Shown here: in pieces, positions 1,441 to 15,208 of the stretch
Numbering within the stretch: the first letter of the stretch is position 1
Layout: every line of letters begins with the position of its first letter
Assembly: GCA_050293845.1 (NCBI GenBank)
Contig: JBNKNM010000128.1
Coordinates: forward strand, 1 to 15,208
From: Pseudobacteriovorax sp.
GTDB lineage: Bacteria; Bdellovibrionota_B; Oligoflexia; Oligoflexales; Oligoflexaceae
Direction of reading: 5' to 3'
DNA: 15,208 nt
The notes under the pieces: generated by a model
The model's input: only the letters and a program-made list of their open reading frames with translations
Databases searched by the model: none
What the model was told of the DNA's origin: nothing
Program-made: the position numbers and the translations under genes

Positions 1441-1923
1441 GAAAACCTCCTATTAACCTTAAAAAATGGGAGCTGAGCCTTCTAGATCTTTTTATCCATC
1501 AACTAATTGTACCTATAGCAAAACTTCAGTTTCAAGGTCATCTTTTCCCCAATGATACGAAAGCTTTCTTTGACCCTATGCCTTCCCATAATGATAAAAA
1601 CATAAAGCCTTCAGTGCACTCTTTTCAGGCTATCAAAAACTGACTGCTGCAAGCCTGTAAACAAAGAATAGGCAATGCTTCCTTTTTCGAATTTAGGGAA
1701 TTTGGATAAAATGTCAATGGATTGGGACACAAAATTTGGCCAAGCGTCCAAAAACACACCGCTTGGTATTATTCAGGTTTACTCTGATGATATAGTATAA
1801 TAATTATATTTAGTTATAGATATTTTTGCGAGAAATCTCCTAGTACACCAAGTTATCTTTCGTGGCGGTTAGCGCTTGCTTTCTCTAAACTTAAGGAATA
1901 AGGTTGGCCTTTTTCGGACTCCT

Positions 1924-2982
1924 ATGATTTTGCTGTCGGGCTACCATACGTCAAGCCACAAATATTGGGCTTCCCAGTTACTGAATATATTTCCAGATAT
2001 GGAAATTCTATCAATGCCAGCTCGCCATTTTGCTTGGCGCTTTCAAGCCAATAGTCTGCACTACTATCAATGGCTTCAAAACAAGCAATTTTCTGGCCCC
2101 GTTATTACCACTTCAATGGTTAATCTTGGAATGTTAAAGGGGCTGTTCCCACCCTTGGCTCAACAAAGAATCCTATTATATTTCCACGAGAATCAATTTG
2201 CTTACCCTGATCGACATACTCAAGGTCATACAGAAAGACTGCTGACAAGCATATATTCTGCACTTGCAGCTGATAGTATTGCTTTTAACAGCGCTTATAA
2301 TCGCAAGACCTTTCTCGCAGGGGTCACTAATTTTTTAAAACGGATGCCAGATTTTAATGATAAAAACTTTGTCGATATATTAGAAAAAAAATCAAGAGTC
2401 ATTCCCGTTCCTGTTATCGATCGAGAAACCACTGTAAACTTTTCATCCTTGAAGGCCCCCCTTCAAATCGTTTGGAATCATCGATGGGAATATGACAAAG
2501 ATCCCCAAACCTTGTTCTACTTTCTGAAACATCTAGATACCTCTGAAATCAGATTTAATATTGCTATTGTTGGCCAAACTTTCCGACAAACACCTCCAGA
2601 ATTTGAAAAAATCAAACAACACTTTTCTAATGTGATTTCAGTGTGGGGCTTTATTGAGGATCGTCAGGACTATGAAACCTTGCTACACAATTCCGATATT
2701 GTTTTATCCACGTCGATACATGATTTTCAAGGAATTGCTATGCAGGAGGCCATAGCTCATAACTGCATTCCTATCGCCCCTCATGATTTAGGATATTCTG
2801 AATTCATTCCTTCTCAGTACCTATATCCAATGTCAGACCACCCTGAAGAGAAAGCTCTGCATGCTTTCTCTTGTTTACAAGATATCATCTCCAATATTGA
2901 CACATTACCACCCATAGATTTAACAAAAATATCACTTCGTTATTTAAGTAACATCTATAAGAAATGGGTTTTTGAGAAATAA
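1924..2982 (+). CDS. GT-B glycosyltransferase, DUF3524 / GTDC1 (tRNA-queuosine alpha-mannosyltransferase)-like
   Basis: Motifs SHKYWA, MPARHFAWR, YFHENQFAYP, FNSAYNRKTFL, IVWNHRWEYDKDP and STSIHDFQGIAMQEA. ATG at 1924 (MILLSGY) is chosen over TTG at 1876 because it fits the family's usual N-terminus. Confidence 0.85.
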   Translation: MILLSGYHTSSHKYWASQLLNIFPDMEILSMPARHFAWRFQANSLHYYQWLQNKQFSGPVITTSMVNLGMLKGLFPPLAQQRILLYFHENQFAYPDRHTQGHTERLLTSIYSALAADSIAFNSAYNRKTFLAGVTNFLKRMPDFNDKNFVDILEKKSRVIPVPVIDRETTVNFSSLKAPLQIVWNHRWEYDKDPQTLFYFLKHLDTSEIRFNIAIVGQTFRQTPPEFEKIKQHFSNVISVWGFIEDRQDYETLLHNSDIVLSTSIHDFQGIAMQEAIAHNCIPIAPHDLGYSEFIPSQYLYPMSDHPEEKALHAFSCLQDIISNIDTLPPIDLTKISLRYLSNIYKKWVFEK

Positions 2983-3192
2983 CTTAGATTTCTTAAATCT
3001 ATTTGATCAATATCCAATAATTTATCATGCATAGGACAATTGTTAGTTAAGACTAAACTAACTAATATAACAGGATAGCAACAATTTATCTTTAGATAAT
3101 AGAAACTTCATGAAATTCTAACAATATAGATATTGAATCCTACTCAAGTATAAATTATTCTCATTTAAAATTTTACAAATGAGGAGACTATA

Positions 3193-4023
3193 ATGAAACT
3201 TCCTTTAAGTATTGCATCTGCGCTTATTATAGCGACATCGTCTTTTGGAGCAATTTGTGAAACTACTGCAGACTATTGGCCGGCTGAGTATACTGCTGGA
3301 GATGACAACATCAATGTTGCATTCTACGGTGATCTATCTCTACTCAACAACTGCACACAGCAACAAGCTGATGTTCATGCAGGAGCTGCTAGCAAACTTT
3401 ATAGTATCGACGTAGAAATTATAGATGCGGCTGCTGGTGCAAGCCTTGAGGATTACAATATATTTGCTATTAACGGTGAAATTGCTGTTTTTGGAATGGT
3501 GGTCGATGATTTCAGCTATGATTTCACTGCTGAGATTAGCTACGGAGATACCCTATCTTTTCCTGTAGAAATTTCTGACAAGCAAATTTTTTTTGCAGGC
3601 CCTATCCCCATTGGTGTTGACTATGGAATTATTGGTGAAGGGGGCTTAGAGTACAATGCGAATCTAAGAGCTTTAGCTTTGGGTTTAGATGTCATCCCTT
3701 TTGTAAAAACTAGTGTATTCGCGGCTGCTGGCATTGATGCCATCATTGCATCAGTGAAGGTTAGAGGTGAGTTGGCCTTAATCAACGATAGTTTTAATAC
3801 CAACTTAATCCTGGCCATAGATCAAGAAACTTTTGACAGAGCCTTTTTCACTGCATACGGCGAAAACGAGTTTAGTGCTTTAGATGGATCTATAGATCTT
3901 ATAGCCGAAGTGGGTATCGATCCACTTAAAGAATCATATGATTTAGAATTATATGCATGGAAAGGTTATTCCATAAGAGATGAAGCTTTTAATGTTGAAT
4001 CTGATATCCCATTTCCAAACTAA
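3193..4023 (+). CDS. Secreted, acidic, beta-strand-rich protein of unknown function (candidate lipid-binding sheet subunit)
   Basis: GAGGAG RBS at 3181-3186. Sec-type signal MKLPLSIASALIIATSSFGA. Alternating hydrophobic/small-residue strands and an FFAGPIPIGV hairpin-like motif. About 40 D/E versus about 10 K/R by hand count. Two Cys. Confidence 0.8.
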   Translation: MKLPLSIASALIIATSSFGAICETTADYWPAEYTAGDDNINVAFYGDLSLLNNCTQQQADVHAGAASKLYSIDVEIIDAAAGASLEDYNIFAINGEIAVFGMVVDDFSYDFTAEISYGDTLSFPVEISDKQIFFAGPIPIGVDYGIIGEGGLEYNANLRALALGLDVIPFVKTSVFAAAGIDAIIASVKVRGELALINDSFNTNLILAIDQETFDRAFFTAYGENEFSALDGSIDLIAEVGIDPLKESYDLELYAWKGYSIRDEAFNVESDIPFPN

Positions 4024-4037
4024 ATTTTATTAAAAGG

Positions 4038-4056
4038 TGCTTCCCCTAGGGAAGCA
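4038..4056 (+). promoter_or_regulatory. Intercistronic stem-loop
   Basis: TGCTTCCC-cta-GGGAAGCA, a perfect 8-bp stem with no U-tract, immediately before the GGAG RBS (4058-4061) of the next gene. Confidence 0.6.
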
Positions 4057-4067
4057 TGGAGCCTAAT

Positions 4068-5807
4068 ATGAAACGCATCTTTGCTACCCTTCTCCTTTTT
4101 CCTATCATCTTGTTACTAGGATACATGCGCAATAAAGAGTCCGTTTCTAGTGATCACTCAACGGCTATATCTGAAGCTGCTCCCGTTAGTATTGCTACCA
4201 AGCTTCCATGCCAATCTCATATTCGCTATCGTTATGAATTTTCCTATTACACTAGTGGGAAGCTATTGGTAAATAACCAAGAAAAATTTTTAGAAATGAA
4301 AGTTACCGGCGAACTCAATCGATTCTGCTTAAGCCAATTGCCTCAGAACATTCAATATCTTCAAGTACAAAATATAAATATCCAGCAAAACATGAACCTC
4401 AGCCAGAAAAAAATAACAAACCTTAAGCAAAACCTTAAACACGGTGTATTTCTTCGTAGCGAGGCAAAAAACTCAATAGCATCAAGCATCCGGGAATATC
4501 ATGGTTCTTCCACAATTATTCTGAGTGATCTTGTCAGCAGTTTTTTTCTATGCTTCAACCAACAAGATCAGGATCATTGGCAATGTACAGAAAAGCATAC
4601 TGATCACCAATATACGAGTCAATATCAAAAGAGCGATAGCGAAATTGTTAAAACATATAGTTACGGGGACATAAACAAAGGATTATTCAACGAGGAAATT
4701 CGGCTTTCGATCCCAGGGTATAAGTATATTTACTTCACCAAAAAGCAAAAGCAAAATCAACAGACAATGGCTTTTGCAGGCACTACGTCTATTAAATACA
4801 CCCTTAAGGATACATTCAACATTTCCGTAAATGACAAAAACAAACTGCTTCAAGAATTCAGCTTAGCTAAGATACCATTACTGCACAAACTCACTAAAAA
4901 AATGCAAAAGTCAGGATATGAAAAAGCCTTGGGACAAACCACACTCACCCAGCTATGGCAGCCGGGGCTTTTTGAAAAAGGGGAGCATTTCAAGAAGATA
5001 GTTGGTTGGCTGCTGCAAAACCCCAACAATGCTGATGCTATAAAGGATAAGCTTATCACAAACCAGCTTGATGCTCCTCATAAGCTCTGGGTGCAAGCTC
5101 TCGCTAAGGTGGGTAAGGCAGAACACCAGAAAGCTTTAACTGAGCTTTATCGTAATTTGGAAGATAAAGCAGATAAGCGTTTTACAATGACAGCCTTGGG
5201 GTTCGTCACCAAGCCCAGCTCTGAATCTATAGATTTTCTAAAAGAAATAGTAGCTTCAGAAGGTTTATCAGGTATGGGAAAGAATGCTATGTATAATATA
5301 GGAGTCATGAGCAACAAACCTGAACAAGAGGATCTTTATACCTATATCTTTGAGAGGCTTAAAAATGCATCTTCTGATCAAGACAGAATTATATTAATTC
5401 AAGCACTTGGGAATTCTAAGCATAGCGGTTTGCGTGAAGTCCTTGAACCATATTATACCCACGCCAGTCCAAAAGTACGCGCTGCTGCTATATTTGCTAG
5501 CCGATTTGTACCAGGAAGCTTTTCATCTTTACTTGGATTTTTGCAAAGCAAAACCTACTCAGACTCTCTTGCAGCAAGCAGAGCCGTAAAGTTTTTTCAA
5601 TTAAAATCAGAGAAAACCGTTGCTATACTCCAAAAATGGAAGGATATAGAATTTTCACAAGTACGTGATCAATTGATCAACACTATACGGGCTCAATACA
5701 AACAGGGAGTTTCAGAAACGGTAAGAAATCACCTGGAACAGGCAAAAGCAGTGGAAACCGATGCTAAGATTAGCGATAAAATAGGGAAAATTACTTTAAG
5801 TCATTAG
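4068..5807 (+). CDS. Membrane-anchored or exported protein with vitellogenin/MTP-like N-terminal beta-domain and lipovitellin/HEAT-like helical domain
   Basis: N-terminal hydrophobic segment MKRIFATLLLFPIILLLGY; ATG at 4068 has GGAG 6 nt upstream. The beta-region starts YRYEFSYYTSG. Helical repeats: QALAKVGKAEHQKAL, TALGFVTKPSSESIDFL, NAMYNIG, IILIQALGNSKH, VRAAAIFASRF. The HEAT-like call is firm; the LLTP assignment is by-eye. Confidence 0.65.
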   Translation: MKRIFATLLLFPIILLLGYMRNKESVSSDHSTAISEAAPVSIATKLPCQSHIRYRYEFSYYTSGKLLVNNQEKFLEMKVTGELNRFCLSQLPQNIQYLQVQNINIQQNMNLSQKKITNLKQNLKHGVFLRSEAKNSIASSIREYHGSSTIILSDLVSSFFLCFNQQDQDHWQCTEKHTDHQYTSQYQKSDSEIVKTYSYGDINKGLFNEEIRLSIPGYKYIYFTKKQKQNQQTMAFAGTTSIKYTLKDTFNISVNDKNKLLQEFSLAKIPLLHKLTKKMQKSGYEKALGQTTLTQLWQPGLFEKGEHFKKIVGWLLQNPNNADAIKDKLITNQLDAPHKLWVQALAKVGKAEHQKALTELYRNLEDKADKRFTMTALGFVTKPSSESIDFLKEIVASEGLSGMGKNAMYNIGVMSNKPEQEDLYTYIFERLKNASSDQDRIILIQALGNSKHSGLREVLEPYYTHASPKVRAAAIFASRFVPGSFSSLLGFLQSKTYSDSLAASRAVKFFQLKSEKTVAILQKWKDIEFSQVRDQLINTIRAQYKQGVSETVRNHLEQAKAVETDAKISDKIGKITLSH

Positions 5808-5923
5808 GATCTGTAACTCTGGGACTGTTTTTTTAGGATACTTACTCCGTAGCCAGCTATTGAACTCCTAGTAAAATTCCTTTATCGTTGCTAGATTCAT
5901 TTAACTTATAATGGGAGACCAAA

Positions 5924-6544
5924 ATGCTAAGAACACTCAGTTATATGTCTCTTTTTGTAATGGGTAGCTTTTACACTTCAGCATTTGCCAGCAAGACTTT
6001 CCCTTTGGATGGAAACGTTCGTACCTTGCAGGCAGAAGAACTGGAAAAGCCTTATTCACAAGATGAGCATTACTCATATAGTAAAAGCAAGTCATTTTCT
6101 CGATGGGTTTACAGCCCTTGGACGAAACCAATTTTCAAAAATAATCAATTGATTTTGAGTACAGATCGTGATCAAAAAAAACAGACTGTATTAATTTCTG
6201 AACTAAGGCTAAGCAGCGACCTATTATCACCCCAAAAATCCTACCAAATCATCTTAAAAAATTCCTATAAATGCCATGGTGACGAATCCTTGCAAAAACC
6301 CTGCAAAATTCGTTTGATGGTGCGTTGCTATGGTAAAACCAAGAGTTCCGATTGGGGTGTGACTTTCGAGAAAATTCAAAAATTTGAGGATATTTCGCCA
6401 GAAGGTATCGCAAGCCTTGATAAGAGTGTCATGGCCGGAAAGGATTGTAGTAAAGGTATTCATATCTCAGCAGAGGCCATCATTAAACCTGGAAATGTCC
6501 AATATGCATTCAAAGAACTTCAGGTAGGTTTCAAAGAACTTTAA
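5924..6544 (+). CDS. Secreted hypothetical protein, Lys-rich, four Cys
   Basis: GGGAGA RBS just upstream. Signal peptide ending SAFA. No recognised family. Confidence 0.7.
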   Translation: MLRTLSYMSLFVMGSFYTSAFASKTFPLDGNVRTLQAEELEKPYSQDEHYSYSKSKSFSRWVYSPWTKPIFKNNQLILSTDRDQKKQTVLISELRLSSDLLSPQKSYQIILKNSYKCHGDESLQKPCKIRLMVRCYGKTKSSDWGVTFEKIQKFEDISPEGIASLDKSVMAGKDCSKGIHISAEAIIKPGNVQYAFKELQVGFKEL

Positions 6545-6861: not shown

Positions 6862-7521
6862 TTACAAGGCAGCAACCATACCGACTATTTCTCTTGACAG
6901 GGATTCGATGGCTTCCCAATCTTCTTTTAATATCGCGTCCTTGGGAGCTACCCAGGAGCCTCCCACACATAGAATGTTTGGCAAAGAAAGATATTTCTTA
7001 AAATTATTCTGATTAATGCCACCTGTCGGGCAAAAATGAATGTCTGAGAAAGGCCCTGCAAATGACTTTAGAGCGCTCACTCCTCCTGAAGAGGTGGCTG
7101 GGAAAAATTTAAAACACTGGTAACCTTCCCCCATCCCCACCATAAGCTCTGAAACACTGGTTATACCGGGTAGGTAAGGCAACCCTATCTCTTTTGCATG
7201 TTTGAGTAAGGCTGGTGTTAAGCCGGGGCTCACTGCGAACTGGGCTCCTACTTCTTTTAACCTATCGAGGTGGCGCAAACTGGTAACAGTCCCCCCACCT
7301 ACAATAGCTTCAGGAACCATTTCAAGTATCATTTCAATGGCATCATAGGCGCAATGGGTACGTAAGGTCACTTCTATGATGGGTAAACCGCCTTTCACCA
7401 AAGCTTTTGCAAGGGGAACAGCCTGAGAAACACGATCGATGGTAAGGACTGGAACCACAGGACTCTTGCGCAGTAAGCTTTCCATTTCCTTTGAGTTTGC
7501 AGCAACAATATCGGCGGTCAA
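6862..7521 (-). CDS. eda: KDPG/KHG aldolase
   Basis: Motifs IEVTLRT, VGGGTV, FAVSPG, FKFFPA, FCPTGGI and VGGSW. TTG start overlaps the glk stop (TTGA), with AAGGAG 7 nt upstream. Confidence 0.97.
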   Translation of the reverse strand: MTADIVAANSKEMESLLRKSPVVPVLTIDRVSQAVPLAKALVKGGLPIIEVTLRTHCAYDAIEMILEMVPEAIVGGGTVTSLRHLDRLKEVGAQFAVSPGLTPALLKHAKEIGLPYLPGITSVSELMVGMGEGYQCFKFFPATSSGGVSALKSFAGPFSDIHFCPTGGINQNNFKKYLSLPNILCVGGSWVAPKDAILKEDWEAIESLSREIVGMVAAL

Positions 7522-8489
7522 GTTATTTCTCCTTCGTTATCAAGCACGGCCGCAGCTCCAATAAGACCTGGCTGAGGTGCCATAATGATAAAGGTAGCAA
7601 TGTCCCTCAGGTAATGGGAGAACCGCCCTTTATCTTCAAATCTTGTTCTAAAATTGCTGTTCTTTTCAATAAACTCGCAGTACCGGGGTGCTATGCCTCC
7701 CCCAATATAAATGCCACCTTTGGCTCCTGTCTGCAGAGCATAATCTCCGGCTACTGAACCAAGAATTTCAAAAAACATATGGAAGGCTTCTATTGCAACA
7801 GCGTCCTCTTCAGCCAGCGCTCTATCAGCGATGTCATGGGCCGAAAGCTTAGGACAAGGCTTTTCATCAAGTTGTGCCAGAGCTTGGTAAAGCAATTGTA
7901 AACCTGAACCGGACAGTAGACTTTCATTAGAAACAAATCTTAGCTGTTTCTGTAGCAACTGCTTGACTGAATATTCACGATCAGTTACAGGACTAAAACC
8001 TGCATGCCCACCTTCTGTAGAAAGAGGTAAATAACCCGATGAGCCAAGGGGAGCTAGAATTGCGGTTCCCAGCCCCGTTCCAGCCCCTAATACTGACTTC
8101 GTTGCTCCATCCCGCTCAACTCCAGAACCAATCTGATGTTTGTCATCGCGGTCCAAGTGAGGGATCGACCGCGCTACAGCTTCAAAATCGTTGATCACCC
8201 TTAAGGCATCAAGTCCCAACTGTTGCTGTAAACGACGGATAGAAAAAGACCAGTGACTATTGGTGAGATGCACCTCATCAGCCGTAATAGGCGATGCAAC
8301 TGCAAAGCAAGCTTTCTTGGGAGGCACAATGCACTGGGCCATACTTAAATAGTGTTTAACCGCGTCACATAAGGACCGAAAATTTTGACTCGATAGGGTC
8401 TCAATTCCAAAAACCTCAGCACCCTCAACAGTCACTAATCCAAAACGAGCATTTGTTCCACCTATATCGCCTACTAAAAAGTGATTCAT
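7518..8489 (-). CDS. glk: Glucokinase (E. coli Glk family)
   Basis: Motifs GDIGGTNARFGL, INDFEA, GAGTGLG, EGGH and GGIYIGGGI. ATGA overlap with the edd stop. Confidence 0.96.
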   Translation of the reverse strand: MNHFLVGDIGGTNARFGLVTVEGAEVFGIETLSSQNFRSLCDAVKHYLSMAQCIVPPKKACFAVASPITADEVHLTNSHWSFSIRRLQQQLGLDALRVINDFEAVARSIPHLDRDDKHQIGSGVERDGATKSVLGAGTGLGTAILAPLGSSGYLPLSTEGGHAGFSPVTDREYSVKQLLQKQLRFVSNESLLSGSGLQLLYQALAQLDEKPCPKLSAHDIADRALAEEDAVAIEAFHMFFEILGSVAGDYALQTGAKGGIYIGGGIAPRYCEFIEKNSNFRTRFEDKGRFSHYLRDIATFIIMAPQPGLIGAAAVLDNEGEIT

Positions 8490-10309
8490 TGCCTAGCTCC
8501 ATACAACACCGAAGCTCCCTCTTCCGCTCCTAAAACAGAATGACGGAAGTTGACAAAGAGTTCACGCCCTACCCCCCATTGGGATGATATACTTTCCTTA
8601 GGTTGGGCCACTGGTCTCGCCTGCAACTCTTCATCGGAAACTAATAACTCCAACTCTCCATTAATAGCATCAAAGTGAACCATATCGCCATCTCTGATCT
8701 TAGCGATTATTCCACGATTGTATGCTTCTGGGCTAAGATGAATAGCTGCTGGGATTTTTCCCGATGCACCAGACATCCGACCATCTGTCAAAAGTGCTAT
8801 TTTATAACCAAGATTCTGCAACACACCTAAAGGAGGGGTGAGTTGATGTAACTCAGGCATCCCATTCGCTTGCGGACCTTGAAATCGTATGACAACGACT
8901 ACGTCTCGATGTAAGTCTCCTGACTTAAATGCTTCTAGCATGTCTTCGGGAGAGTCATAAACAGCTGCGGGAGCCTGCATCACAAGGTGCTCTTTAGCCA
9001 CTGCTGATGTCTTCATTATGGCTCGCCCTAAGTTACCCTTTAGCAGAGTTAATCCGCCATTATCCTGGAATTGACGACCGCCTGAACAAATAATGCTTTC
9101 ATCTCCAGATTGGGCATTTCCCGATATATGCACAACAGAGCCAGCAGGATCTAAACAGGGACGTTTCGTGTAGTGTTCGATCCCTTGTCCCATAACAGTC
9201 TCCACATTCTCAAACAATAAACCGCGATCAAGAAGCTGCTCAAAAACAATGCTCAAGCCCCCCGACTGTTGAAAGCTATTAATATCTTCATGCCCATTAG
9301 GATAAACACGAGCCAAAAGTGGGACCTGTTCAGACAGTGTCGCCATATCATCCCAGTCAATCAATATACTAGCAGCGCGTGCTATGGCAATAAGGTGTAT
9401 GGTAAGGTTTGTTGAACCGCCTGTAGCCAGGAGCCCCACGATACCATTGACAAGGGACTCAACTGTAACCAGTTTATATAGAGGTAAATACCGACTACCC
9501 CGTATCGTTCGTTTGGCAATCAGCTGGGTACCATAGCGAGTCAAAGCATCACGTAAAGGATCACTGGGATTGATGAAGGAAGCCCCTGCTACATGCAGTC
9601 CCATAAATTCCATAAGCATTTGGTTACTGTTCGCCGTTCCATAAAAGGTACAAGTGCCAGGACTATGGTAGGACTTAGACTCGACCTCTAACAGCTCTTT
9701 ACGCTCGATTTCTCCTTTGGCATACTTTTCCCGAGCCTGCGATTTTTCCTTGTTACTAAGTCCGGTCATCATGGGGCCAGCCGGTAGGAATATACCAGGT
9801 AGATGACCAAAACTTAATGCTCCGATGAGTATTCCCGGAACAATTTTATCGCAAGTTCCTAAAAAGACAGCTGCATCAAACATATTGTGGGAAAGAGCAA
9901 TGGCCGTACTCAAAGCGATAGTGTCACGACTGAATAAGCTCAATTCCATCCCCACCTGTCCTTGGGTTACGCCATCACACATGGCGGGAACCCCTCCAGC
10001 AAATTGCGCTACTCCGCCCAAGGCGGCAACAGCGTCTTTAATGATTCCAGGAAAACGATGGAAAGGTTGATGGGCAGAGAGCATTTCATTATAAGCTGAG
10101 ATAATAGCAAGATTAACACAGTCTTGCTTTAAAGCCTGCTTTTGCACCTCAGGACAAGCCGCCATACCATGAGCGAAGTTTCCACAAGATAGGGACTTGC
10201 GAGCGGGGAATTGTTCATTGGCGGCATCCATTCTTTTTTCATAATCGGCACGCAAATTGTGACTTTTCCGTGCTATACGATCACGGACCTTGATGATTGC
10301 TGGATTCAT
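8486..10309 (-). CDS. edd: Phosphogluconate dehydratase
   Basis: Motifs YNEMLSAHQP, AGGVPAMCDGVTQG, CDKIVPG, PGTCTFYGTANSNQ, GMPELHQLTP and TDGRMSGASG. ATG at 10309 has AAGGGG upstream and avoids overlap with pgl, unlike the ORF-track start at 10360. Confidence 0.97.
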   Translation of the reverse strand: MNPAIIKVRDRIARKSHNLRADYEKRMDAANEQFPARKSLSCGNFAHGMAACPEVQKQALKQDCVNLAIISAYNEMLSAHQPFHRFPGIIKDAVAALGGVAQFAGGVPAMCDGVTQGQVGMELSLFSRDTIALSTAIALSHNMFDAAVFLGTCDKIVPGILIGALSFGHLPGIFLPAGPMMTGLSNKEKSQAREKYAKGEIERKELLEVESKSYHSPGTCTFYGTANSNQMLMEFMGLHVAGASFINPSDPLRDALTRYGTQLIAKRTIRGSRYLPLYKLVTVESLVNGIVGLLATGGSTNLTIHLIAIARAASILIDWDDMATLSEQVPLLARVYPNGHEDINSFQQSGGLSIVFEQLLDRGLLFENVETVMGQGIEHYTKRPCLDPAGSVVHISGNAQSGDESIICSGGRQFQDNGGLTLLKGNLGRAIMKTSAVAKEHLVMQAPAAVYDSPEDMLEAFKSGDLHRDVVVVIRFQGPQANGMPELHQLTPPLGVLQNLGYKIALLTDGRMSGASGKIPAAIHLSPEAYNRGIIAKIRDGDMVHFDAINGELELLVSDEELQARPVAQPKESISSQWGVGRELFVNFRHSVLGAEEGASVLYGARQ

Positions 10310-10319
10310 AACATCCCCT

Positions 10320-11015
10320 TCAGTTAGACCAAAAAACTTGCAAAGGATTTTCACGGTCAAGCAAGTACCTTATGGGAGACTTGGTACTAGTATCTGCGGC
10401 TATCTGTAAAAAAGTGCGCAATTTTTCAACACCCGCAATTTGCAGAAATATGCGCCGGGAGTTTTTCAGAGCTCTTAATGTTAATGTCATCCGAGCATAG
10501 GGGGAGGTAAGGGGAGTGATCCCTCGGCACATTAGCTTATCTTCCTCGATGACTTCTTGAAATTGAGCAGCACATGGAAACAAAGATGCTGTATGGCCGT
10601 CTAAACCCATTCCTAACACAAGAAGATCGAATGGCAAAGACATCCGATCCTCTATCTCCTTATGGCTAAACTTTTCCGCCGTAAATGGGCTGTCATCATG
10701 ATTTTTTAACCCTACAAATTGAGCCTTAGCAGCGTAGTTTTGCAAAAGATTCTCATGCACAAGACGCTCGTTACTGAACTCATGATCGGTGGCAACCCAT
10801 CGATCGTCAGCAAGGGTTATCATAACTTGAGACCAAGGAATTGTCTGCTGAGATAAGAGCTGAAATAAGCGTTTTGGTGTACGGCCACCAGACACAACCA
10901 GACTTGCCTTTCCCCTCTTTTGCATGGCTAAAAGCAAGTCATCGATCATCATGTCGCATAAGAGTTGATCCCTCTCCTCTGCGCTGGAAAATTTTTTTAA
11001 ATGATAGCTAATCAT
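10320..11015 (-). CDS. pgl: 6-phosphogluconolactonase
   Basis: Motifs VSGGRTP, DDRWV, SNERLV, LGMGLDGHTASLFP and RMTLT. ATG at 11015 overlaps the zwf end; 11030 is an alternative start. Confidence 0.95.
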   Translation of the reverse strand: MISYHLKKFSSAEERDQLLCDMMIDDLLLAMQKRGKASLVVSGGRTPKRLFQLLSQQTIPWSQVMITLADDRWVATDHEFSNERLVHENLLQNYAAKAQFVGLKNHDDSPFTAEKFSHKEIEDRMSLPFDLLVLGMGLDGHTASLFPCAAQFQEVIEEDKLMCRGITPLTSPYARMTLTLRALKNSRRIFLQIAGVEKLRTFLQIAADTSTKSPIRYLLDRENPLQVFWSN

Positions 11016-12480
11016 GCCAGGTTCTCCCATCTCGAGCTATTAACGTTGAGGCTTTCTCCGGCCCCCAACTTCCCGCAGCATAGGGTTCAGGCTGCTCTGC
11101 AGAAATGCTCCACCCTTCCAGAATGTTATCCGTCCAGCGCCAAGCTGCTTCCACTTCATCCCGTCGCATAAAAAGGGTTTGATTGGCACGAAATACATCC
11201 AACAGCAAACGTTCGTAGGCTGCTGGTGTCCGGGGATTGTCGAAGGCTTTGGTCAGACTCAAGTTCAGGGGAACAGCTCGCAGTTTCATCGATTCTTCCA
11301 AACCAGGAACCTTATTCATCATGACTAGCTGAATACTTTCCTCAGGTTGCAAGCGAATAACGAGTTTATTAGCGCAGATAGTATCCTGTTCTGATTTAAA
11401 AATGGAGTGAGGAATTGATTTAAATTGAATAACGATTTCTGAGTAACGCACTGCCATACGCTTGCCTGTCCGTAAATAAAACGGGACTCCGGCCCAGCGC
11501 CAATTATCAATTTCAGCGCGAAGAGCAACAAAAGTTTCTGTATGGGAGCCACTTCTATCACCTTCAACGGAATAGCTCGCTACACTTTCGCCCTCAATAA
11601 CCCCTTCCTGATACTGCCCTCTGACAGTGTTCTGCCTGACTTGGTCACAAGGAATATCCCTCAGGGAGCGTAAAACTTTGAGTTTTTCATCGCGAACCGC
11701 ATCAGCATTTAAGGTGCTAGGCGGTTCCATAGCGACAAGACACAGGAGTTGTAGTAGGTGGTTTTGCACCATATCTCTGAGCGCTCCTGCTTTATCATAA
11801 TAAGACCATCGAGACTCTACTCCTACAGTTTCAGCTACGGTGATCTGTACGTGATCAATGGCAGCCGAATTCCATAAGGGTTCAAATAGAGTATTGGCAA
11901 ACCGAACCGAAAGCAGATTTTGAACAGTTTCTTTACCTAGATAATGATCAATGCGATAAATTTGCTCCTCATTAAGGTACTTGGCAAGCTCGTTATTTAT
12001 GGTTTGTGAGGACACAAGGTCTTCCCCAATCGGTTTTTCTAGAGCTATTCTCGTTTTAGGGGTGATCAGGTTAGATTTGAATAAATTATCGCACAAACTG
12101 GCAAATAGTGATGAAGAGGTTGAAAAGTAGTAGATGCATTCACTTGCTGCACTAGTGGCACAAACCTCTGCTATATGATGAAAGGTTTCCAACTCCTTGG
12201 CATCGACCATGGTGTAACGAAGTTTCTTTCTAAATAATTGCCAATCTTCGTCACAGATTTCTTCCTCGTCAAGATTGACTCTTAAACCTTCGTAGACCAA
12301 AGATACATATTCTTCAGTGGTGAGCCGGGTGTGAGATGCACCAATAATGTAGCCCTGTATTCCTAAGTGCCTGTTCTTAAAAAGCCTATATAGGGATGGT
12401 AGCAACTTCCGGATGGCAAGGTCTCCATTGCCACCAAAAAGTACTATATTGAACGGTTCTAACGAAGCTGAAAAAGCCAT
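11008..12480 (-). CDS. zwf: Glucose-6-phosphate 1-dehydrogenase
   Basis: Motifs GGNGDLAIRKLLPSLY, EKPIG, RIDHYLGKETVQN, DMVQNHLLQ and WAGVPFYLRTGKR. Confidence 0.98.
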   Translation of the reverse strand: MAFSASLEPFNIVLFGGNGDLAIRKLLPSLYRLFKNRHLGIQGYIIGASHTRLTTEEYVSLVYEGLRVNLDEEEICDEDWQLFRKKLRYTMVDAKELETFHHIAEVCATSAASECIYYFSTSSSLFASLCDNLFKSNLITPKTRIALEKPIGEDLVSSQTINNELAKYLNEEQIYRIDHYLGKETVQNLLSVRFANTLFEPLWNSAAIDHVQITVAETVGVESRWSYYDKAGALRDMVQNHLLQLLCLVAMEPPSTLNADAVRDEKLKVLRSLRDIPCDQVRQNTVRGQYQEGVIEGESVASYSVEGDRSGSHTETFVALRAEIDNWRWAGVPFYLRTGKRMAVRYSEIVIQFKSIPHSIFKSEQDTICANKLVIRLQPEESIQLVMMNKVPGLEESMKLRAVPLNLSLTKAFDNPRTPAAYERLLLDVFRANQTLFMRRDEVEAAWRWTDNILEGWSISAEQPEPYAAGSWGPEKASTLIARDGRTWHD

Positions 12481-12795: not shown

Positions 12796-13671
12796 GTGGG
12801 TACCATTAATATCTTACAAAAAATCAGTAAGTCTAGAGCCTCGTTAAGCAAATCAGAATTAAAAGTTGCCGACGTAGTTCTCGCAGACCCTAATACTACA
12901 ATTAGATCAAGTATTGCAAGCCTGGCTCGCTCAGCTGAAGTGAGCGAACCTACCGTCAATCGGTTTTGTCGTAGTTTAGACTGTAGTGGATTTCCCGACT
13001 TCAAGTTGAGGGTTGCCCAAAGCTTGGCAAACGGAACTCCCTATGTCAACAGTAACGTGGAACCCCATGATACCGTAGAGGATTTTGCGGTCAAGATCTT
13101 CGAAATGACCATGGCAAGTTTGGAAGATGCAAGAAGTAACTTGGATTTTAAGCTTATCGGCCGCGCTGTAGACGCCCTAGCCCAGGCAAAAAAAATTGAG
13201 TTTTATGGCTTAGGAGCCTCAGCATCGGTAGCCATGGATGCACAGCATAAATTTTTCCGTTTGAACACTCCTACTGTGGCATACACAGATATTATGATGC
13301 AAAGGATGTCAGCTGCCTCCACCAGCCGGGGGGATTGCATCGTCATCATCTCCTATACAGGCCGCACCATTGCCACAATTGAAGCCGCCCGTCTAGCACG
13401 GGAAGCAGGAGCGACTGTCATTGGGATTACAAACCCCAACTCCATGCTAGCTTCTGGATGTAATATTGTTTTGGGTGTCGAAACTGCAGAAGATACCGAT
13501 GTCTATACACCCGCCATTTCACGATTGGTACACCTTACCATTGTTGATGTCCTGGCAACCGGTGTCACCCTTCGACGGGGGCCAGAATTTTTAGATCATC
13601 TAAAGCGGGTTAAAAATTCTCTTGTAGATACGCGATACCGCAAAGATGTACCTCCTCACCTGCAAAATTAG
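12796..13671 (+). CDS. hexR: HexR transcriptional regulator (RpiR family HTH plus SIS domain)
   Basis: Motifs SKSELKVA, VSEPTVNRFCR, GFPDFKL, FYGLGAS, DAQHKFFR and ISYTGRT. Divergent from zwf. The start codon is uncertain (GTG 12796, CTG 12787 or ATT 12805). Confidence 0.95.
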   Translation: MGTINILQKISKSRASLSKSELKVADVVLADPNTTIRSSIASLARSAEVSEPTVNRFCRSLDCSGFPDFKLRVAQSLANGTPYVNSNVEPHDTVEDFAVKIFEMTMASLEDARSNLDFKLIGRAVDALAQAKKIEFYGLGASASVAMDAQHKFFRLNTPTVAYTDIMMQRMSAASTSRGDCIVIISYTGRTIATIEAARLAREAGATVIGITNPNSMLASGCNIVLGVETAEDTDVYTPAISRLVHLTIVDVLATGVTLRRGPEFLDHLKRVKNSLVDTRYRKDVPPHLQN

Positions 13672-13741: not shown

Positions 13742-14794
13742 TCATTCTGGAATTAGTCCCTGTACTTTCCATAACTTTCCAGCAGTTGTGATATAGAGAA
13801 GATCACCCTTGTCTCCTCCAAATGTTACATTAGTTACATTATCCTGCAGCTGTAATTCTTGGATAGTCAATCCATTAGGATCAAGAACCACTACTTTTTG
13901 ATCAGTATGAACAGTTGCATAAATATTTTCCTGACAATCCTGAGCCATACCATCGATGCCAGAAGATAATATGGCAAATATTGCAGGAGGTGCCGTGGGT
14001 AATCCTTGACTATCAAGGGGATAGCGATAAATAGCCCCATCGCTGGAACTTACGAAGAGCCGTGATTCGTCGGGGCTTAGTAGTACCCCATTAGGTTGGA
14101 GAATGGTTTCTCCTAATGGCACCAGCTCGTTGTGATTATAAAAGTAAATCCGCGTCACTGGCTGGCCCGGACGCGTTCCCCGTTGGTAATTAGGGTCGGT
14201 AAAGTAGATTCCTCCATCTTTTCGTAAAGTCAGATCATTTGGCGAATTAAATGGCAGATCATTGTAAGTCGCAACAAGACTCTCCCTTGCACCGGTTTCA
14301 ATATTGACTCTTGCGATTTCCTGACGATCATGAAACGCACCATAAAGATATTGATTGCCGTCATTTTCTAAACCATTTGTGCCGTTTATACCTTTATCAC
14401 TAAAAATCGAACAAGCATCAGCGTTGCACTGCAAAATAGCTGAAGGAGGCCCAGCTCCTGCATCTTCGTTAACATCCCATGCAGAAAGATATAGTCTTTT
14501 TTTTGTAGAATGCCAGGTCGGCCCTTCCAGAAAATTAAAACCGTTGGGGATGAGCACTTCTTGTAGTGAGTCAATAAGAAGAATCTGGCCAGTTACCTCT
14601 TTAGGACAGACTGTTTCAGGCTCTACCGTTCGTTCTGTTTCTTCTACGACAGCTCCAGCTTCCGAAATAGAGCCCAATCTACCCTGCTCCTGAATCACCG
14701 CATCACGCCTATCTTCAAAGTGCCGACTTCTGCAGGAAAGTAACAGCAATACAATACTGACAACCAAAAAACAGTTCCCATGGAACCTCTTCAT
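13742..14794 (-). CDS. SMP-30/gluconolactonase/LRE family beta-propeller lipoprotein
   Basis: Motifs FLEGPTW, GTNGL, FNSPNDL, YFTDP, QPNGVLLSPDE, DGMAQD and TNVTFGG. Lipobox LLSC follows a hydrophobic stretch. ATG at 14794 has a GGGGAG RBS. Confidence 0.9.
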   Translation of the reverse strand: MKRFHGNCFLVVSIVLLLLSCRSRHFEDRRDAVIQEQGRLGSISEAGAVVEETERTVEPETVCPKEVTGQILLIDSLQEVLIPNGFNFLEGPTWHSTKKRLYLSAWDVNEDAGAGPPSAILQCNADACSIFSDKGINGTNGLENDGNQYLYGAFHDRQEIARVNIETGARESLVATYNDLPFNSPNDLTLRKDGGIYFTDPNYQRGTRPGQPVTRIYFYNHNELVPLGETILQPNGVLLSPDESRLFVSSSDGAIYRYPLDSQGLPTAPPAIFAILSSGIDGMAQDCQENIYATVHTDQKVVVLDPNGLTIQELQLQDNVTNVTFGGDKGDLLYITTAGKLWKVQGLIPE

Positions 14795-15208
14795 CAACTC
14801 CCCCAATTTATCCAGATATGAATAATGAACCTGTGGGTTACTTCGGCAAAAAAATCATCCTCATTAACAGCTTTGTCTTGTGGTTTGATGCGCTTTTCAC
14901 TGCTGTTCACACTTCGGTGAAGAATTGAGAGAGTTCTCTGCACATTAATTTCATACCAAATTTGGTACGTTAGTGGTTTATAGCAAAAAAAGTAGCAATT
15001 TCGCCAAACTTTTTCGACACATTATCTTGAACATGGCTCAAGGAGGCTAACAGAATATACCCACAAGCTGCCAATGATATAACTTAACTCTTCAGATCTC
15101 GGTTACATCGCTGCTCTCAAAAATAGATGAGCTATAGTAATCCAGATAATTTTTTTGGGTTTTAAGCCTTTGCAGAAGCGGCTTCCAATTTCTTAAACTT
15201 CCCGAAAA

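Follow-up and report, generated by a model that had tools for sequence, protein, structure and literature searches.

A Pseudobacteriovorax gene pair predicted to encode a two-subunit relative of the large lipid transfer proteins

The large lipid transfer proteins (LLTPs), which include microsomal triglyceride transfer protein (MTP), apoB, vitellogenin and apolipophorin, are treated as eukaryotic and mainly animal proteins in those parts of two published accounts that concern their distribution (PMC6717300, PMC1783640). The first account regards MTP, which is widespread among eukaryotes, as probably the most ancient member, and describes the LLTPs as having a conserved barrel and helix module and a diverged C-terminal lipid-binding domain (PMC6717300). 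We describe here a gene at 4068-5807 in a 15,208-nt stretch of DNA from Pseudobacteriovorax sp. (contig JBNKNM010000128.1; the whole stretch is referred to as the window) together with the gene that precedes it at 3193-4023. The encoded proteins are referred to as the LLTP-like protein and its partner. Based on the homology of the helical domain, the predicted folds, the pairing of the genes and the existence of fused forms, we consider it likely that these genes encode a two-gene bacterial lipid carrier resembling MTP; from the same evidence we infer the physical binding of the two proteins, their location and the lipid nature of their ligand.

The closest described system is the alpha subunit of MTP (6I7S, 8EOJ), the smallest LLTP, in which the same order of domains is found: a barrel, a superhelix and a two-sheet lipid-binding domain. 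The combined mature length of the bacterial pair is about 790 residues, compared to 894 in the MTP chain (8eoj_B), and identity to MTP is 12-13% for the LLTP-like protein and 6-7% for the partner. In MTP the third domain is part of the same chain, whereas in the bacterial pair its predicted counterpart is a separate polypeptide encoded upstream. The bacterial protein also differs in having a predicted N-terminal membrane anchor and in belonging to a bacterial envelope, whereas MTP resides in the endoplasmic reticulum. With respect to the protein disulfide isomerase (PDI) subunit of MTP, no thioredoxin-family match was present among the neighboring open reading frames (ORFs) scanned, no search having been aimed at PDI itself. 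The same barrel and helical module, with an ALGN-type motif in the helices, is found in lipovitellin/vitellogenin and in the beta-alpha1 region of apoB100 (1LSH, 9ENR/9ENS, 9BD1, 9BD8); compared to vitellogenin and apoB the bacterial protein is far smaller and has none of the extended amphipathic segments found in apoB, and no match to DUF1943 or VWD was found in the LLTP-like protein or in the relatives scanned. HEAT proteins (HEAT_2, alphaRep) share the C-terminal helical repeats, but have neither the N-terminal barrel nor a beta-sheet partner.

Relationship of the LLTP-like protein to the LLTP family

A first-pass annotation, made from the DNA letters, had proposed a eukaryote-like Vitellogenin_N architecture for the LLTP-like protein on the basis of nine short motifs. 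All nine strings are present and in the order given (residues are numbered throughout from the ATG at 4056): YRYEFSY (58-64), LKHGVFLR (127-134), ILSDLVSSFFL (155-165), TEKHTDHQYTSQY (178-190), IVKT (197-200), ALAKVG (348-353), ALGFVTKPS (380-388), ALGNSKH (450-456) and VRAAAI (474-479), with C177 immediately preceding the TEKH of the fourth. When analyzed alone, the LLTP-like protein matched a single Pfam family, HEAT_2 (residues 432-481, E 2.5e-8, 34.5 bits, the cut-off being 27.7). There was no match at E ≤ 1 to Pfam Vitellogenin_N (PF01347), the curated gathering cut-off of which is 24 bits, and none when the N-terminal 295 residues were used; a phmmer search against the PDB yielded no matches at E ≤ 10, and a word-indexed homologue search recovered only the protein itself. 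Because HEAT_2 is the only Pfam match and phmmer finds nothing in the PDB, the motif likeness of the single sequence is not significant.

Analysis at the level of the family gave a different result. A phmmer search of 1.84 billion representative sequences identified 209 proteins at E ≤ 1e-3, 14 at E ≤ 1e-10 and 5 at E ≤ 1e-30, most of them 560-660 amino acids in length, the best match other than the protein itself being 38% identical. Matches to PF01347 at E ≤ 1 were obtained for 25 of the 32 family members aligned (alignment A1), the strongest having an E of 5.2e-26. The 24-bit cut-off was exceeded by 21 of the 31 relatives, and four others matched below it; the best-matching stretches mostly covered profile positions ~300-590, which correspond to the helical part. 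A paralogue in the same genome, on contig C287, also exceeded the cut-off at 39.9 bits. When the A1 profile was compared with the PDB, lipovitellin (1lsh_A, E 1.1e-19, profile 123-522 to chain 76-509) and MTP (8eoj_B, E 4.2e-14, profile 45-519 to chain 21-512; 6i7s_G, E 1.4e-13) were each matched in one colinear stretch. The five strongest matches of this profile were artificial alphaRep HEAT proteins (E 1.6e-43), because the family has HEAT-like repeats. The motif correspondences proposed by the first-pass annotation were reproduced by hhalign, which placed LKHGVFLR on 'el..PfYfqQ', ILSDLVSSFFL on 'NiKRaa.SqLq' and TEKHTDHQY on 'E.DV.G.YTA.Y'. Thus the profile likeness to Vitellogenin_N, which is absent for the window protein itself, is found in the majority of its relatives, and the motif likeness is beyond chance at the family level. 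Taken with the predicted structure, these data make it very probable that the LLTP-like protein is truly homologous to the LLTPs.

The structure of the LLTP-like protein was predicted with AlphaFold2 (AF2) from alignment A1, giving a model with a mean predicted local distance difference test (pLDDT) score of 86.4. The model contains strands at residues 56-255, interrupted by an internal helix at 151-162, followed by helices at 258-582. In a Foldseek search of the PDB, ranks 1-11 were occupied exclusively by LLTPs: MTP (6i7s_G, E 4.8e-14), lipovitellin (E 2.1e-11), the beta-alpha1 region of apoB100 (E 3.4e-11), honeybee vitellogenin (E 1.6e-8) and the apoB barrel (9bd8_A, E 9.5e-7). Superposition on MTP had been put forward as a check on the proposal, and VIA alignment of the model (residues 44-573) with MTP 6i7s_G (chain 20-614) gave a Z of 17.6 over 499 residues, with a root-mean-square deviation (rmsd) of 13.0 Å. 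Similarly, lipovitellin 1lsh_A aligned with a Z of 15.8 and an rmsd of 9.3 Å over 496 residues (model 51-572, chain 17-623), and the barrel of apoB (9bd8_A) with a Z of 17.0 and an rmsd of 4.5 Å over 220 residues (model 46-279, chain 40-312). The high rmsd over the whole chain suggests that the angle between the domains of the model differs from that of MTP. HEAT proteins attain a similar Z in VIA, but over the helical part only. In both the family profile and the VIA alignments the superhelix directly follows the barrel and is colinear with that of MTP and lipovitellin, so that relatives' Pfam matches, family profile and predicted structure agree with the barrel-then-superhelix order of the conserved LLTP N-terminal module. 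In the AF2 model the helical domain is the last one of the polypeptide, which contains no C-terminal lipid-cavity beta-sheets.

A potential concern with this assignment is the sequence signal for the barrel. Several results weigh against the proposed relationship here, in addition to the negative Vitellogenin_N and PDB searches with the single protein and the fact that all structures described are predictions. An N-terminal profile of 11 sequences (A4) found no LLTP in the PDB, its best matches being unrelated chains (E 0.78); a profile of 10 sequences covering residues 1-445 (A5) found alphaRep proteins only, with no LLTP at E ≤ 1; and A4 compared by hhalign with single fused relatives, which are described below, gave probabilities of 1.7% and 0.3%, neither being significant. 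Because these smaller N-terminal profiles found no LLTP, we consider the sequence signal of the barrel to be weak and transitive. The signal emerges only with the deeper profile: the N-terminal columns of the 32 A1 sequences aligned with eight fused barrels at a probability of 96.9% (E 1.5e-10, 192 columns). The fused barrels in turn match PF01347 unaided, residues 52-240 of P0147 aligning to profile positions 1-180 (E 1.2e-12) and residues 141-239 of P0151 to positions 78-164 (E 8.4e-8), and some members within the same phylum align to PF01347 from profile position 36 or 88 on. The first-pass annotation had made its proposal depend upon residues ~50-260, and this region resembles the LLTP barrel both in the apoB superposition and in the N-terminal profile comparison. 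Support for an LLTP-type N-terminal barrel thus comes from two sources, the predicted structure and a transitive link between sequences.

The upstream partner and the predicted complex

The partner encoded by the upstream gene has a signal peptide to about residue 21, two conserved cysteines (C22 and C54) and a mature isoelectric point (pI) of 4.05. No Pfam family and no PDB sequence was matched by it, and a word-indexed homologue search recovered only the partner itself. An AF2 model made from a 21-sequence alignment (A3) had a pLDDT of 84.1 and contained 13 long strands. The best Foldseek matches of this model were MTP chains (6i7s_G, E 1.4e-6, TM-score 0.48; 6i7s_H, E 1.6e-5, TM-score 0.50, rmsd 6.5 Å), followed by lipovitellin (E 2.9e-3) and by MTP 8eoj_B and honeybee vitellogenin at a probability of 0.95-0.96. 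VIA alignment with MTP gave a Z of 7.7 and an rmsd of 3.9 Å over 214 residues for 8eoj_B, and a Z of 7.2 and an rmsd of 4.2 Å over 235 residues for 6i7s_H. Residues 25-270 of the partner model superpose on the lipid-binding region at the C-terminus of MTP (570-877). The partner thus appears to be a predicted counterpart of the C-terminal lipid-binding sheets of MTP and other LLTPs.

Fused bacterial proteins also connect the partner with the LLTP-like family. When compared by hhalign, residues 575-837 of P0147 (839 amino acids, metagenomic) aligned to the partner family at a probability of 89.6% (E 1.9e-6), and residues 614-802 of P0151 (866 amino acids) at 93.8% (E 1.7e-7); a profile-profile comparison of the partner family with the fused C-terminal domains gave 97.0% (E 1.3e-10, 232 columns). 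Both proteins score over the PF01347 cut-off and both have a signal peptide. The cluster of P0151 includes WP_012190932.1 from Herpetosiphon aurantiacus and carries the automatic names 'lipid transporter', 'Lipid transport protein domain' and 'Vitellogenin domain-containing protein'. Since the C-terminal domain of these proteins is homologous to the partner, bacteria have single-chain proteins with the domain order of MTP in addition to the split form. The fused proteins, which belong to the same family as the window proteins by both their barrels and their C-terminal domains, carry all three domains in one chain of 839-866 residues, whereas the window has two genes with that for the C-terminal domain placed first. 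A homologue search with the alignment of fused forms recovered only Herpetosiphon relatives and one protein of 609 amino acids, and no eukaryotes.

We examined the pairing of the two genes in 41 related genomes, including that of the window, scoring a partner as present if found within 6 kb on the same contig and strand. LLTP-like matches were found in 21 of these genomes, full-length orthologues being present in four genera and many of the other matches covering the C-terminal half only; partner matches were found in 22. The partner gene lies directly upstream at all four full-length orthologous loci. Twenty of the 37 LLTP-like matches were paired with a partner, which was upstream in 17 cases and downstream in three; the gene of C-terminal type is therefore usually first in the split form, but is second in one genus (G022, G037). 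Family hidden Markov models identified three full-length LLTP-like ORFs in the window's own genome (on C128, C287 and C277), each with a partner ORF immediately upstream, and the three copies rank in the same order of score in both families. The two additional pairs lie at 2380-5427 (+) of C287 and 2962-5984 (-) of C277; their partner proteins are longer than the one in the window, with open frames of 429 and 394 codons compared to 276 amino acids.

The complex was predicted from residues 49-583 of the LLTP-like protein and residues 22-276 of the partner, using custom alignments and three controls. The interface score ipSAE was 0.85, 0.87 and 0.83, compared to 0.00 for the best control; the mark applied to this score is attained by 116 of 157 solved complexes and by 2 of 215 mismatched pairs. 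The runs shared 76% or more of their contacts, and the pLDDT of the partner was at least 73. The predicted interface involves the inner face of the helices at ~343-453 (including G416, G452 and N453) and parts of the barrel, and on the partner residues 99-106, 119-149 and 172-195. Of the conserved positions, 3 of 10 in the LLTP-like protein and 4 of 11 in the partner fall within the interface, an enrichment too weak to count. The mature LLTP-like protein has a pI of 9.44, opposite in charge to the acidic partner. Two points weigh against a heterodimer: no partner was detected within 6 kb of 17 of the 37 LLTP-like matches, and, because the pair resembles solved LLTPs, the high score may reflect the predictor's memory of these structures, as for the halves of a split gene. 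The prediction is accordingly read as a likeness to a complex and not as binding. With these points considered, there is a good probability that the LLTP-like protein and its partner form a heterodimer.

An alternative explanation is that the LLTP-like protein is a true relative of the LLTPs, but serves in the periplasm as a scaffold or as the receptor for a ligand other than lipid. The partner would then merely share the operon, being either a barrel of the outer membrane or a sheet protein of unrelated origin. The structural Z of the partner is middling and leaves room for this explanation: in a search independent of Foldseek, MTP ranked third among 48,161 chains, behind an axonemal protein (Z 9.7, 126 residues) and a unit of the AIDA-I autotransporter (Z 8.2, 136 residues), and outer-membrane barrels scored close to MTP at a Z of 6-7. 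In addition, no lipid-metabolism genes were found by Pfam among the ORFs neighboring the pair, and part of one account has LLTP N-terminal modules serving protein-protein binding as well (PMC6717300). The alignments to outer-membrane barrels have an rmsd of 16-21 Å or extend over only about 100 residues, whereas the longest low-rmsd alignment is that to MTP, 214-235 residues at about 4 Å, making an outer-membrane barrel the less likely identity for the partner. LLTPs are the only Foldseek matches of the partner at E < 1e-2 (probability at least 0.96), its family forms the C-terminal domain of the fused LLTP-like proteins, and its predicted interface faces the helical domain. An aromatic C-terminal residue, as would be expected of outer-membrane barrels, is absent from all 21 aligned partners. 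We therefore regard the scaffold or receptor explanation as unlikely and retain that of a split, MTP-like carrier.

Distribution and origin of the family

Named relatives of the LLTP-like protein come from Pseudobacteriovorax (Bdellovibrionota, Oligoflexia), one of them bearing the UniRef name 'Lipoprotein amino terminal region', from Kofleriaceae and 'Deltaproteobacteria' metagenome-assembled genomes, and from Herpetosiphon (Chloroflexota). The nearest clusters in the Atlas are all bacterial, with Myxococcota or Pseudomonadota the commonest labels, and HEAT_2 and Vitellogenin_N are present on 12-75% of their members. PF01347 was matched in 34 of 131 genomes from the phylum of the window, 30 of these over the cut-off, and in none of 14 control genomes. 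The GC content of the gene pair is 0.384-0.395, compared to 0.412 for the genome. As judged from these sequences, the family appears broad and old in bacteria.

A second alternative is that the gene pair derives from recent horizontal acquisition of a fragment of an animal or protist LLTP. This would accord with the description of LLTPs as eukaryotic in the parts of the literature cited above (PMC6717300, PMC1783640) and with the patchy occurrence of PF01347 within the phylum. The wide and diverged bacterial spread of the family, with its 209 clusters at E ≤ 1e-3 and members across Bdellovibrionota, Myxococcota and Chloroflexota, argues against a recent import from eukaryotes, as do the three diverged paralogous pairs within one genome and a GC content near that of the genome. 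In addition, the split arrangement has no counterpart among the solved eukaryotic LLTPs that were matched (MTP, lipovitellin, apoB and vitellogenin), all of which are single chains. Recent import is thus very improbable, and of the label 'eukaryote-like' used in the first-pass annotation the shared fold family stands but a recent eukaryotic source does not. It is just as hard to credit that the LLTP-like protein is a generic HEAT-repeat protein beside an unrelated beta domain, with convergence and predictor bias supplying the LLTP likeness, for while the alphaRep and HEAT_2 matches would fit this, the lipovitellin and MTP matches run as single colinear stretches of 400-475 positions from barrel into helices, the control genomes lack PF01347, and the barrel is recognized by itself in the apoB superposition and in the Pfam matches of the fused relatives.

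A more far-reaching and less probable reading, which we would put forward only tentatively, is that LLTPs were invented in bacteria, that the two-piece and fused carriers of Bdellovibrionota, Myxococcota and Chloroflexota are ancestral to MTP, vitellogenin and apoB, and that the split heterodimer works as a lipid shuttle between membranes or from prey. If this were true, animal lipoprotein assembly would originate in a machine of the bacterial envelope. Many of the named carriers belong to groups that include predators (Herpetosiphon, the myxobacteria and the Bdellovibrionota); a link between the family and predation is speculation.

A full-text literature search, which extended to neither subscription journals nor supplements, found no description of bacterial LLTP or Vitellogenin_N proteins, and no paper pairing 'Herpetosiphon' with 'vitellogenin'. 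Some members already bear automatic database names, 'lipid transporter' and 'Lipoprotein amino terminal region' among them, so that the match of a Vitellogenin_N domain in bacteria is not in itself new; what appears to be undescribed is the division between two genes and the family to which the partner belongs.

Organization of the locus and proposed role

The features of the locus are listed in the table. The LLTP-like gene lies within a single open frame (4056-5807, 583 codons) with in-frame ATGs at 4056 and 4068. The latter is the likelier start because GGAG lies 6 nt 5' of it and because a gene call of 579 amino acids (P0002) agrees with it. The 4056 ATG is overlapped by an inverted repeat with an 8-bp stem containing five G-C pairs, which also favors the start at 4068. 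This repeat was classed as a minus-strand terminator-like site in a promoter and terminator scan, the counts of which were not clearly above those for shuffled sequences (4 terminator-like sites found compared to 2.6 expected); it may influence how the downstream gene is translated or coupled. The short spacer suggests that the two genes are co-transcribed.

Features of the Pseudobacteriovorax sp. window and of the LLTP-like protein
Feature	Position	Strand	Description
Glycosyltransferase gene	1876-2982	+	QTMAN_N (E 4.1e-50) and GT1 domains
Partner gene	3193..4023	+	276-aa exported all-beta protein; predicted counterpart of the MTP C-terminal domain
Intergenic spacer	4024..4067	+	32-44 nt depending on start; inverted repeat 4038-4056, GGAG 4058-4061
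LLTP-like gene	4068..5807	+	579 aa from 4068, 583 aa from in-frame ATG 4056; stop codon included
Hydrophobic N-terminal helix	4071..4130	+	Residues 6-25; AF2 secondary structure and pLDDT
Beta-barrel domain (predicted)	4209..4820	+	Residues 52-255, internal helix 151-162; AF2, VIA, hhalign
Alpha-helical HEAT-like superhelix	4827..5801	+	Residues 258-582; HEAT_2 match, Vitellogenin_N matches of relatives
ALGN motif	5403-5414	+	Residues 450-453, within superhelix
Third small exported ORF	5924..6544	+	206 aa, signal-peptide-like N-terminus, 116 nt 3' of LLTP-like gene
Entner-Doudoroff / oxidative pentose-phosphate cluster	6862-12480	-	zwf, pgl, edd, glucokinase, eda
RpiR-family regulator gene	12796-13671	+	HTH_6 and SIS domains
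SMP-30/gluconolactonase-like gene	13742-14806	-	Exported protein

The hydrophobic N-terminal helix of the LLTP-like protein is followed in the AF2 model by a low-confidence linker (residues 26-48), and a hydrophobic N-terminus is likewise present in the aligned relatives of A1. Based on the model, the helix is probably a membrane anchor or an uncleaved signal sequence. P0029 and some other members of A1 begin with 'LSGC' in place of the long hydrophobic helix, a start that we take to be lipobox-like; the membrane tether may thus be a lipid anchor in some lineages. Within the barrel, cysteines 52, 91, 166 and 177 are invariant among the six closest family members, and N453 of the ALGN motif is the sole invariant column of the 32-sequence alignment.

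The third small ORF has no Pfam family. A similar ORF of 209 amino acids is found in the same place only in one genome of the same genus (G001; 768-1394 of locus L002), and not in loci L003-L005. Its product could be a lineage-specific third component or could be unrelated, so that its membership in the module is uncertain. Farther downstream, a complete Entner-Doudoroff and oxidative pentose-phosphate cluster encodes G6PD (zwf), Pgl, Edd, glucokinase and KDPG aldolase (eda) in overlapping or abutting genes. The GC content of this cluster is 0.456, compared to 0.38-0.40 in the left 6.5 kb of the window and 0.412 in the genome, and the best matches of its Edd (52-58% identical, 80 loci) are almost all from Pseudomonadota, with two from Acidobacteriota. 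The RpiR-family regulator gene is divergent from the adjacent zwf and is followed by the SMP-30/gluconolactonase-like gene. On the other side of the pair, the glycosyltransferase carries the N-terminal domain of tRNA-queuosine alpha-mannosyltransferase, a domain name that derives from a eukaryotic tRNA-modifying enzyme.

We propose that the N-terminal helix would anchor the LLTP-like protein in the inner membrane, with a flexible linker placing the rest of it in the periplasm. The four barrel cysteines and the two conserved cysteines of the partner would fit such an oxidizing compartment. The exported, acidic partner would dock against the barrel and on the concave side of the helices, in the manner of the A and C sheets of MTP. 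The resulting heterodimer would restore all three domains of the LLTP module and form a hydrophobic pocket able to hold lipid. Its most likely job would be to keep lipids bound or ferry them within the envelope, near the inner membrane; a role in lipid holding or transfer is slightly favored over other functions.

A widespread and deeply diverged bacterial barrel-helix family that occurs in both fused and two-gene forms alters the picture of LLTPs as eukaryotic and mainly animal proteins. Phylogeny and structure can now be used to test directly where the superfamily arose. The pair would also provide a small, two-subunit model, expressible in bacteria, for how a helical domain cradles lipid-binding sheets. 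For the organisms themselves, these findings suggest that Oligoflexia and Myxococcota possess a type of protein for handling envelope lipids that has not been described before.

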